From assembly GCF_017348835.2 (NCBI RefSeq), contig NZ_CP071375.1: a DNA stretch of 64,000 bases. One strand, written 5' to 3'. Positions 54,501 to 57,500 of the stretch are shown here, piece after piece (positions within the stretch are counted from its first letter, which is position 1; the number at the start of each line of letters is the position of its first letter). This DNA comes from Escherichia coli (GTDB lineage Bacteria; Pseudomonadota; Gammaproteobacteria; Enterobacterales; Enterobacteriaceae). Made by a program: the position numbers.

Positions 54501-57500
54501 GATTTTGAATTTTTCAGGGGAAAGATAATGCACGACTCACTAACCATTGCGTTGCTCCAGGCGCGAGAAGCGGCGATGAGTTATTTTCGCCCAATCGTTA
54601 AACGGCATAATTTGACTGAACAACAGTGGCGCATCGTGCGTATTCTGGCGGAAAGCCCATCAATGGATTTTCACGATCTGGCGTATCGCGCCTGCATTTT
54701 GCGCCCAAGCCTGACCGGGATCCTTACGCGGATGGAACGCGACGGTTTAGTGTTGCGATTAAAGCCAATCAATGATCAGCGGAAGCTCTATATCTCGCTA
54801 ACCAAAGAGGGGCAGGCGCTGTATAACCGCGCCCAGACACAGATTGAAGAAGCCTATCGGCAGATTGAAGCTCAGTTTACTGCCGAGAAAATGCAACAGT
54901 TAACCCATCTGTTAGAGGAATTTATTGCTCTGGGCAATTCCCGACAAGAAGACATCCCGGGCGATAATGAATAACTTTTTAGTATCTGATAACCAGCGCC
55001 TGGTTTTTCCATGGATGGCGGGTTACACCTTTTCATAAAGTTTTTGCTTTCCAGGTCGAAAATCTTGCATCGGTCCACAGGAAAGAGAAACCATGTTAAA
55101 ACGTATCAAGATCGTGACCAGCTTACTGCTGGTTTTGGCCGTTTTTGGCCTTTTACAACTGACATCAGGCGGTCTGTTCTTTAATGCCTTAAAGAATGAC
55201 AAAGAAAATTTCACTGTTTTACAAACCATTCGTCAGCAGCAATCCACGCTGAATGGCAGCTGGGTCGCGTTGTTGCAGACGCGTAACACCCTCAACCGCG
55301 CGGGTATCCGCTACATGATGGATCAGAATAATATTGGTAGCGGTTCAACCGTTGCTGAGCTGATGCAGAGTGCCAGTATTTCGCTGAAACAGGCGGAAAA
55401 AAACTGGGCAGATTACGAAGCGTTGCCGCGTGACCCGCGTCAGAGCACCGCCGCAGCGGCAGAGATCAAACGTAATTACGATATTTATCACAATGCGCTG
55501 GCGGAGCTGATCCAACTGTTAGGTGCAGGCAAAATCAACGAGTTCTTTGATCAGCCGACCCAGGGATATCAGGACGGTTTCGAGAAGCAGTATGTGGCTT
55601 ACATAGAGCAAAACGATCGGCTCTATGATATCGCCGTCAGCGATAACAATGCCTCCTACAGCCAGGCGATGTGGATTCTGTTGGGCGTGATGATCGTCGT
55701 ACTGGCGGTCATCTTCGCCGTCTGGTTCGGTATTAAAGCCTCGTTGGTAGCGCCAATGAATCGCCTGATTGACAGCATTCGTCATATTGCAGGCGGCGAT
55801 CTGGTGAAACCGATTGAGGTGGATGGCTCTAATGAGATGGGGCAACTGGCAGAGAGTTTGCGCCATATGCAGGGAGAGCTGATGCGTACCGTCGGTGATG
55901 TGCGCAACGGGGCCAATGCCATCTATAGCGGTGCCAGCGAAATCGCCACCGGCAATAACGATCTCTCTTCGCGCACCGAGCAACAGGCCGCTTCGCTGGA
56001 AGAGACGGCAGCCAGCATGGAGCAACTGACCGCAACGGTGAAACAGAACGCCGAGAATGCGCGCCAGGCCAGCCACCTGGCGTTAAGTGCTTCTGAAACG
56101 GCGCAACGCGGCGGCAAAGTGGTAGATAACGTGGTGCAGACTATGCGTGATATCTCCACCAGTTCGCAGAAAATCGCCGATATTATCAGCGTAATTGACG
56201 GCATTGCCTTCCAGACCAATATTCTGGCTTTGAACGCGGCGGTTGAAGCAGCGCGTGCGGGTGAGCAAGGACGTGGTTTTGCGGTGGTTGCGGGAGAAGT
56301 GCGTAATCTGGCCCAGCGTAGCGCCCAGGCGGCTCGTGAAATTAAAAGCCTGATTGAAGACTCGGTGGGGAAAGTGGATGTTGGCTCTACGCTGGTCGAA
56401 AGCGCCGGGGAAACAATGGCGGAGATTGTCAGTGCCGTGACCCGCGTGACGGACATTATGGGCGAAATAGCTTCTGCTTCTGATGAGCAGAGCCGTGGTA
56501 TCGATCAGGTTGGCTTAGCGGTTGCTGAGATGGACCGGGTAACTCAACAGAACGCCGCGCTGGTGGAAGAATCTGCCGCTGCCGCCGCCGCGCTGGAAGA
56601 GCAGGCCAGTCGCCTGACCGAAGCTGTGGCAGTGTTCCGGATTCAGCAACAGCAGCAACAGCAGCGTGAAACATCGGCTGTGGTAAAAACCGTGACGCCA
56701 GCTACGCCGCGTAAAATGGCAGTGGCAGATAGCGGGGAGAACTGGGAAACGTTTTAATCGCCATAAAAATGCCCGATAAGCAAAATGTTATCGGGCATAG
56801 GGAGTTTAATCTTTACGCGGGTCGTTGATCGGCTGACGAACCAGGAAGATGTACGCCAGTGCTCCCGCTGCGGTGACGCAACCGCAAATGATTAGTGCCA
56901 GACGGAATGAGTGGGTTGTATCAACAATAAAACCAGTAATGATCGGCGCGAAAGAGGCGCAGATGAAGCTGGCAAAGTTCTGGATACTGCCCACCGACGC
57001 AGTCATGCGAGAAGCAACTGCGACGTGGATCAAGCCCCAGCAGGATGTTCCGGCAAAGTGAATACAGAACAGTGCCATGCCAATCAGCAGAACCGCCATC
57101 ATGGATGTTGTCGCTTGTGGTACTATCAGCGTAAAGGCGGCAGAACAGAACATCCCGGCAATAATGCAGATCTTACGGCTTTTAATCGGAGCCATTCCCC
57201 CTTTGACCAGCCAGTCAGTAACGTAACCGTTGACCAGCATCCCGGCAGCCCCAAACAGGAAAGGGATAGCCGCCATCAACCCTGTGCTTTTTAAATCCAG
57301 GTTATAGGCTGTTTGCAGGTAACCAGGAAGCCAGGCCAGATACAGCCACGCAGTGTAGTTGATGCCACTGAATCCGAGCATCATTCCCCACATTGTGCGG
57401 TTACGGAACAGGCTGCGCCATTCGGCAAAACTGAGCGGATCTCGGCGTGCATTGACGCTACCTGCATTGAGATAAGCTTGTTCAACGGCAGTCAGTTCTA

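Follow-up and report, generated by a model that had tools for sequence, protein, structure and literature searches.

A nine-base tandem repeat at the start of the C-terminal tether of the Escherichia coli serine chemoreceptor gene tsr, and its commonest allele

The tsr locus

The window, which here means the whole stretch of 64,000 nucleotides of Escherichia coli DNA that was analyzed, carries a gene for the serine chemoreceptor Tsr (Table 1). The gene adjoins lgoT-lgoR, the same neighbors as in K-12. Three Pfam domains were identified in its protein: TarH (PF02203) at residues 1-176 (E 3e-54), HAMP (PF00672) at residues 217-263, and MCPsignal (PF00015) at residues 327-484 (E 2e-62). The order TarH-HAMP-MCPsignal is the one that characterizes Tsr and the pentapeptide-bearing transmembrane MCPs of Enterobacteriaceae. 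The translation ends with NWETF, a pentapeptide of the xWExF form, and 33 residues lie between R516 and this pentapeptide, where a linker of about 30-35 residues is expected.

Orthology with the K-12 gene was evaluated outside the repeat described below, and only 28 of 1,644 non-repeat positions differ between the window CDS and tsr of the K-12-derived strain RP437. In the complete genomes listed, out of 5,382 with a match, the RefSeq annotation of the matching gene is tsr. By every criterion for Tsr that can be applied to the sequence, the window gene qualifies as this receptor. Serine sensing, methylation by CheR and demethylation by CheB would follow for its product from orthology.

The 20 kb around the gene have a listed identity of 100% to the genomes of E. 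coli PE164 and F2_81, with a length difference of one base. In both of these genomes tsr has hpaR and the hpa cluster on one flank and lgoT-lgoR-lgoD on the other. We also considered a feature on the opposite strand at the repeat and rejected it; the antisense ORFs that overlap the tsr coding region are spurious, and none of them extends to the repeat.

Table 1. Features of the tsr region in the window (positions are those of the whole stretch).
Feature	Position	Strand	Basis
tsr CDS (serine chemoreceptor, MCP-I), 554 aa plus stop	55093..56757	+	ORF, Pfam, annotation in PE164
Flexible C-terminal tether I517-E549, 33 residues (30 in K-12)	56641..56739	+	ORF coordinates; start as in PMC10561060
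Seven-Gln run Q518-Q524, polymorphic repeat	56644..56664	+	9-bp unit CAGCAACAG present twice, then a terminal CAG
NWETF C-terminal pentapeptide	56740..56754	+	translation; function as in PMC7390727 and PMC8609364
GC-rich terminator-like hairpin in the interval between tsr and lgoT (convergent genes)	56769..56798	.	terminator scan, minus-strand score; 11-pair stem followed by T-run; consensus match only

The glutamine run and its repeat unit

The sequence-only reading had described a Tsr of 554 aa with seven Gln residues, encoded by mixed CAG and CAA codons, in the tether before NWETF. Both statements agree with the translation of the ORF, in whose frame the codons of the run are CAG CAA CAG CAG CAA CAG CAG. 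The seven-Gln run is not a chance feature. In 100,000 shuffles of the window protein a run of seven or more Gln never appeared (the longest had six), and about 9e-6 such runs are expected. At the DNA level, the 64-kb window contains no other perfect period-9 tract of 22 nt or more.

The same reading had taken the run for a trinucleotide repeat, and this part has to be corrected. Tandem Repeats Finder describes the tract at 56644..56665 as a repeat of period 9 with the unit CAGCAACAG, 2.4 copies and 100% matches, while as a period-3 repeat the same tract gives 78% matches only. Trinucleotide slippage is not expected here, because the interspersed CAA codons break the 3-bp register. The unit CAGCAACAG encodes QQQ, and each unit adds three residues to the protein. 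Alleles differ by whole units: purpose-built queries for alleles with six and eight Gln (6Q and 8Q) found neither of them, and the best full-length single-piece matches were the seven-Gln allele (7Q) with a gap of 3 nt.

The sequence-only reading had also given the K-12 protein as 551 aa with a shorter run, and this is accurate. Both MG1655 and RP437 encode a protein of 551 aa with four Gln (CAG CAA CAG CAG). The K-12 Tsr sequence given in Table 1 of PMC10561060 agrees with this four-Gln form.

Alleles and their frequencies among E. coli strains

How far does the length of the repeat vary within the species? The alleles detected have the structure (CAGCAACAG)n + CAG with n from 1 to 4, which gives 4, 7, 10 or 13 Gln (4Q, 7Q, 10Q and 13Q) and proteins of 551, 554, 557 and 560 aa. 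In the alignment of tsr 3′ ends, for which strains were taken from the spread of BLAST matches, K-12 MG1655 has one unit (4 Gln), the window two (7 Gln), strain AF16 three (10 Gln), and strain Z1323HEC0355 four (13 Gln). The repeat is perfect in all 19 whole tsr genes compared, and every allele is in frame and ends with NWETF. The frame is always preserved because all length changes are changes of whole units. A phase-variable contingency locus was considered as well and rejected, since the 9-bp unit lies inside the CDS and all alleles are in frame.

Tsr proteins of other lengths (570, 568, 555, 553 and 552 aa) did appear in the whole-database protein search, and in these the changes lie outside the Q-run. 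This search gave only near-identical E. coli alleles and none from other genera.

A query of 291 nt matched 5,382 of 5,426 complete E. coli genomes, 4,095 of them at 95% identity or more and 1,287 at 90-95%. In a sample spread over the matches, the former group had the window length, and the latter consisted of the 4Q allele and a few 10Q and 13Q alleles. Allele-specific queries gave similar numbers: 4,059 of 5,342 genomes matched the 7Q query at 95% or more, and 1,287 matched the 4Q query at the same level; among the latter is at least one longer allele whose match was put together from two parts. The 10Q query matched exactly and in a single piece in 48 cases, with 23 further matches at 95-99% identity, and the 13Q query gave three exact matches; with these long queries single-piece spans were counted, as the identity bands are unreliable where shorter alleles are listed as two joined pieces at 100%.

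From these counts, which combine BLAST identity bands with the spread sample and are blurred at the band borders by a few tens of genomes through two-piece joins, we estimate the shares among about 5,380 complete genomes as follows: 7Q about 76%, 4Q about 22% (a share inflated by the over-representation of K-12 and BL21 derivatives in the genome collection), 10Q about 1.3%, and 13Q about 0.06% (three genomes). Carriers of 4Q include K-12 and BL21, and carriers of 10Q include HS and LF82. The 7Q allele of the window is thus the commonest in E. coli, and the 4Q allele of K-12 is a minority short form. The sequence-only reading had named a single length common to K-12 and most strains as the outcome that would speak against it. 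This came true for most strains, about 76% of the complete genomes having the window length, and not for K-12.

Short repeats are prone to miscounting, and a run of seven Gln could for this reason be ascribed to an error of sequencing or assembly. We regard such an error as next to impossible here. About 4,060-4,100 complete genomes have the same repeat length, the surrounding 20 kb agree with the two independent genomes PE164 and F2_81 as described above, the same tail is present in PDB entry 3ZX6, and orthologues in other genera share the protein length. An assembly artefact was rejected on the first and third of these grounds, that is, the number of independent genomes with the same length and the PDB tail.

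Ancestral length of the tether

It is useful to view the alleles against Tsr of related genera. A scan with the degenerate pattern V-A-V-F-R-I-Q-Q over one genome per bacterial species, which is biased to relatives that keep the VAVFRIQQ motif, yielded 78 loci, of which 55 were Tsr orthologues ending with xWExF. These included representatives of Enterobacter, Citrobacter, Salmonella (arizonae, diarizonae), Kluyvera, Leclercia, Lelliottia, Trabulsiella and Yokenella, as well as Escherichia whittamii. Counted from Ile517 to the last residue, the tail measures 38 aa in 36 of these 55 orthologues (range 35-40), which is the length given by the 7Q allele; the K-12 tail has 35 aa. Among full-length orthologues, 27 of 37 have exactly 554 aa, and the alignment of 38 Tsr sequences occupies 557 columns only.

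The composition of this segment is variable. In other genera, the place of the pure E. coli Q-run is taken by QQEQQRAR, QQEQMKAR and the like. In E. whittamii a duplicated CAACAGCAG (QQTQQQQQQ) is already present.

A length of 554 aa is typical of the family and presumably also ancestral. Since this length is mostly kept in other genera with few gaps, the 7Q allele would be ancestral, and the one-unit form carried by K-12 and BL21 presumably represents a derived deletion of 9 bp.

Recurrent change of the repeat length

A phylogenetic tree was built from the 19 tsr sequences with the repeat masked, and the length classes are scattered over it. The 4Q allele occurs in three clades (K-12/BL21/E110019, YPE12/SW07091, and N25). 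The 10Q allele occurs in two or three, with HS and KSC64 in one clade and LF82 and AF16 separately inside another. The 13Q allele occurs in two clades. At least seven length changes are required on this 19-taxon tree.

The plainest example is given by N25 (4Q) and SCEC020007 (7Q). Outside the repeat, only 2 of 1,644 positions distinguish their genes, and these lie 267 and 566 nt upstream of it. Both strains have in common the distinctive tail …KNVTPATP…, which neither of the two remaining 4Q tail haplotypes in the sample has. This indicates that the 4Q allele of N25 arose as a new deletion in its own background and was not imported from another 4Q strain.

Recombination also occurs in tsr, with 474 of 2,278 pairs of informative sites failing the four-gamete test, and therefore some of the other apparent recurrences may be due to allele transfer and not to new slippage. 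Judged from the tree and the N25 pair, the length of the repeat has changed more than once in E. coli tsr, and the same length class is found on different tsr backgrounds.

Taken together, the Q-run repeat is a low-copy coding VNTR. Its units are arranged head-to-tail with high identity (100% by Tandem Repeats Finder, and perfect in the 19 alleles), its copy number varies between strains by whole units (1, 2, 3 or 4), and its changes are recurrent and independent, as seen in the 4Q/7Q pair and on the tree.

Position of the run and the effect of one unit

In the description of PMC10561060 the Tsr tether starts with I517, anchored at R516, and the K-12 tether (IQQQQRETS…SEE-NWETF) has 30 residues ahead of the pentapeptide. 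The PDB array model 8C5V stops at residue 516. With the tether starting at I517 and the model ending at 516, the Q-run therefore forms the first tether segment. At the other end, CheR and phospho-CheB dock with high affinity on the pentapeptide, which lies at the tip of an unstructured arm (PMC7390727, PMC8609364). According to EPR work on Tar cited in PMC7390727, PMC10561060 and PMC8609364, the C-terminal 30-35 residues are unstructured.

The boundary between helix and chain can also be drawn differently. The extra Gln residues might extend the rigid C-terminal helix instead of the chain; the anchor would then move away from the methylation sites by about 0.15 nm per residue, and the packing of the HAMP-proximal bundle may be altered. 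The Q-run does abut the helix end at R516, and in an AlphaFold2 (AF2) model built from 38 aligned sequences the last helix ends near residue 520, inside the run. Poly-Gln beside coiled coils tends towards helical structure, which points in the same direction. However, the model has low confidence (mean pLDDT 57, pTM 0.31, with pLDDT below 50 from residue 522) and gives a weak hint on the helix end only. The EPR results on Tar place the C-terminal 30-35 residues outside any ordered structure, and as the partner N-terminal helix keeps its length, the extension would stand as an unpaired single helix. We consider helix extension unlikely.

Very probably, the window carries the commonest allele of a short coding 9-bp tandem repeat that lies where the helix ends (R516) and the tether starts (I517). 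Slipped-strand mispairing of the perfect units, or unequal exchange between them, would account for the changes of copy number. The tether would gain three residues with each unit, and the computed tether lengths for 4Q, 7Q, 10Q and 13Q are 30, 33, 36 and 39 residues. Under the tethered-particle model, for which the measurements were made on Tar, each unit would shift the CheR peak about 0.4 nm along the receptor.

The size of this step can be estimated from published constructs. With engineered Tar tethers of 22, 29, 34 and 46 aa, the fitted position of the CheR peak (x0) moves linearly, by 0.128 +/- 0.048 nm/residue, and successive methylation sites are 1.05 nm apart (PMC10561060). If the Tar slope applies to Tsr, each repeat unit would move the peak of tethered CheR by about 0.38 nm, or about one third of the spacing of methylation sites. 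The idea that tether length would affect the reach of CheR and CheB is mechanistically reasonable. The effect of one step on adaptation kinetics is probably modest and near-neutral, and not that of a switch.

Could the repeat nevertheless serve as an adaptive device, different hosts or niches favoring different tether lengths? A change of copy number would then be a quick and reversible in-frame retuning of CheR/CheB reach, and with it of the speed and precision of adaptation to serine and other Tsr signals. Several observations are consistent with such a role: the length classes turn up repeatedly on unrelated tsr backgrounds (at least seven changes among 19 alleles), the repeat is perfect in every allele examined, and tether length measurably shifts the position of CheR in Tar (PMC10561060). 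In addition, carriers of the 10Q allele include mouse isolates as well as several gut and pathogenic strains of B2, such as LF82 and NRG 857C. However, with one to four copies the repeat is well below typical hypermutable contingency repeats. A single allele dominates and the long ones are rare, in the proportions given above, and the hosts look mixed in each length class among the matches listed. Other genera hold the 38-aa tail without the repeat, which suggests stabilizing selection on length and not diversification. We therefore find an adaptive role of this kind very unlikely, and prefer to regard the window allele as the common form of an otherwise ordinary coding repeat.

Significance of the window allele

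The 7Q allele is ordinary and already known, being the majority allele, already sequenced and already present in the PDB. The window itself matters little because its allele is the species norm. A mild curiosity, and a point of caution for work on chemotaxis, lies on the other side of the comparison: the atypical Tsr is that of the model strain K-12, which is without three Gln present in about three quarters of sequenced E. coli.

Most natural E. coli Tsr tethers have 33 residues, near the 34 of Tar, and not the 30 used in models. It has been remarked that the Tsr linker is shorter than that of Tar to match the geometry of methylation sites (PMC10561060). With a majority tether of 33 residues this remark is weakened.

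It is rather doubtful that the 9-bp copy-number series measurably retunes the kinetics of Tsr adaptation between E. coli lineages. If it does, then K-12, on which nearly all quantitative models of chemotaxis are based, has an atypically short Tsr tether, and the published parameters of serine adaptation, together with the argument from Tsr/Tar linker geometry, would be unrepresentative of the species. The natural alleles with tethers of 30, 33, 36 and 39 residues also offer a ready series for models of adaptation by tethered enzymes, with no need of artificial linkers. A limited literature search, which is not proof of absence, found no prior description of the natural tsr alleles and no use of the tsr locus in VNTR or MLVA typing; in two hits TSR stood for a reagent or for primer names.

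Comparison with known systems

Among coding repeats, the nearest counterparts are the MLVA-type coding VNTRs of enterobacterial genomes. They have in common with the tsr repeat perfect head-to-tail units, strain differences of whole units, and recurrence across backgrounds. The tsr repeat differs from them in its very low copy number (1-4) and its low diversity.

Linker truncations by Li and Hazelbauer (2006) reportedly also altered the length of the disordered arm. The engineered Tar linkers of PMC10561060 likewise change the length of the disordered arm leading to NWETF, and the tethered-enzyme mechanism applies to both Tar and Tsr. In contrast to the natural Tsr alleles, which proceed by steps of three residues at the proximal end, the Tar constructs change 5-12 residues distally.

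Both the 7Q and the K-12 form are represented in the PDB. In PDB 3ZX6, where the HAMP domain of Af1503 is fused to the Tsr cytoplasmic domain, the last 108 residues are identical to those of the window protein, including the seven Gln, although the molecule is a chimeric construct. PDB 6S1K carries the K-12 form of the tail.

A further close system is K-12 Tsr itself. It shares with the window the locus by lgoT, the domain order, the tether (with few substitutions) and the NWETF pentapeptide. It differs in having one QQQ unit instead of two, and hence in the counts that follow from the unit: 4 Gln versus 7, a tether of 30 residues versus 33, and a protein of 551 aa versus 554.

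Glutamine run in other Escherichia

The glutamine run of Tsr, the serine chemoreceptor, can be followed beyond E. coli. In the genome of Escherichia whittamii (L076) the corresponding segment reads QQTQQQQQQ, encoded as ATT CAG CAG ACG CAA CAG CAG CAA CAG CAG CGT, and the tail of the protein is 40 aa long; the duplicated 9-bp unit CAACAGCAG therefore occurs outside E. coli too. Two further Escherichia-lineage genomes (L028, L083) had QQ(A/T)QQRQHEALP, without the repeat.

Length variation elsewhere in Tsr

The six-alanine run A495-A500 is flanked by two methylation-site glutamates, E493 and E502. 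Five alanines instead of six were found in P0051 (553 aa) and four in P0095 (552 aa), the latter also having QQQQQHQ. The heptad register would be shifted in both variants. Both are rare database proteins represented by single-contig entries, and they may be errors.

Larger changes were detected in two other rare E. coli Tsr variants, relatives of the product of window 55093..56757. The HAMP domain of P0015 (570 aa) has an internal tandem duplication of 16 aa, and methylation helix 1 of P0083 (568 aa) has a tandem duplication of 14 aa, which is exactly two heptads.

Some tsr loci appear damaged. In E. coli E110019 (L009, 180..1835) the gene's annotation is that of a pseudogene with an internal stop, and the adjoining lgoT is frameshifted. 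In Shimwellia pseudoproteus (L038) the tsr-like frame runs past VAVFRIQQ into unrelated sequence and has no NWETF end. The locus may be a pseudogene, or the cause may be a frameshift or a faulty assembly.

DNA flanking tsr and other repeats

Compared with the loci fetched from other genomes (L007-L024), the DNA is variable on both sides of tsr, at about 54400..55092 and 56758..58200 of the window. On the upstream side, the window shares hpaR and the hpa cluster with BL21, HS, ATCC 8739 and YPE12; no hpaR annotation was present directly upstream of tsr in the fetched loci of K-12, Nissle and O157. Downstream, the window has lgoT-lgoR, as do K-12, O157 and Nissle, whereas LF82, AF16, MS20677, RM14723, YPE12 and SW07091 have TRAP-transporter permeases there. 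Similarity between strains ends directly after the tsr stop codon.

Other repeats of the window, with the alanine run of Tsr
Feature	Position	Location	Details
52-bp unit	48458..48572	between hpaX and hpaI (annotation of E. coli strain PE164)	about two imperfect tandem copies
Six-Ala run	56575..56592	A495-A500 of Tsr	codons GCC/GCT/GCG; TRF match 56573..56591
21-bp unit	59938..59978	within lgoD coding region	2.1 imperfect copies in tandem, G+C-rich, 81% matches

The 52-bp repeat carries motifs (GCCGGATG...CTTATCCG) typical of REP/BIME intergenic elements.
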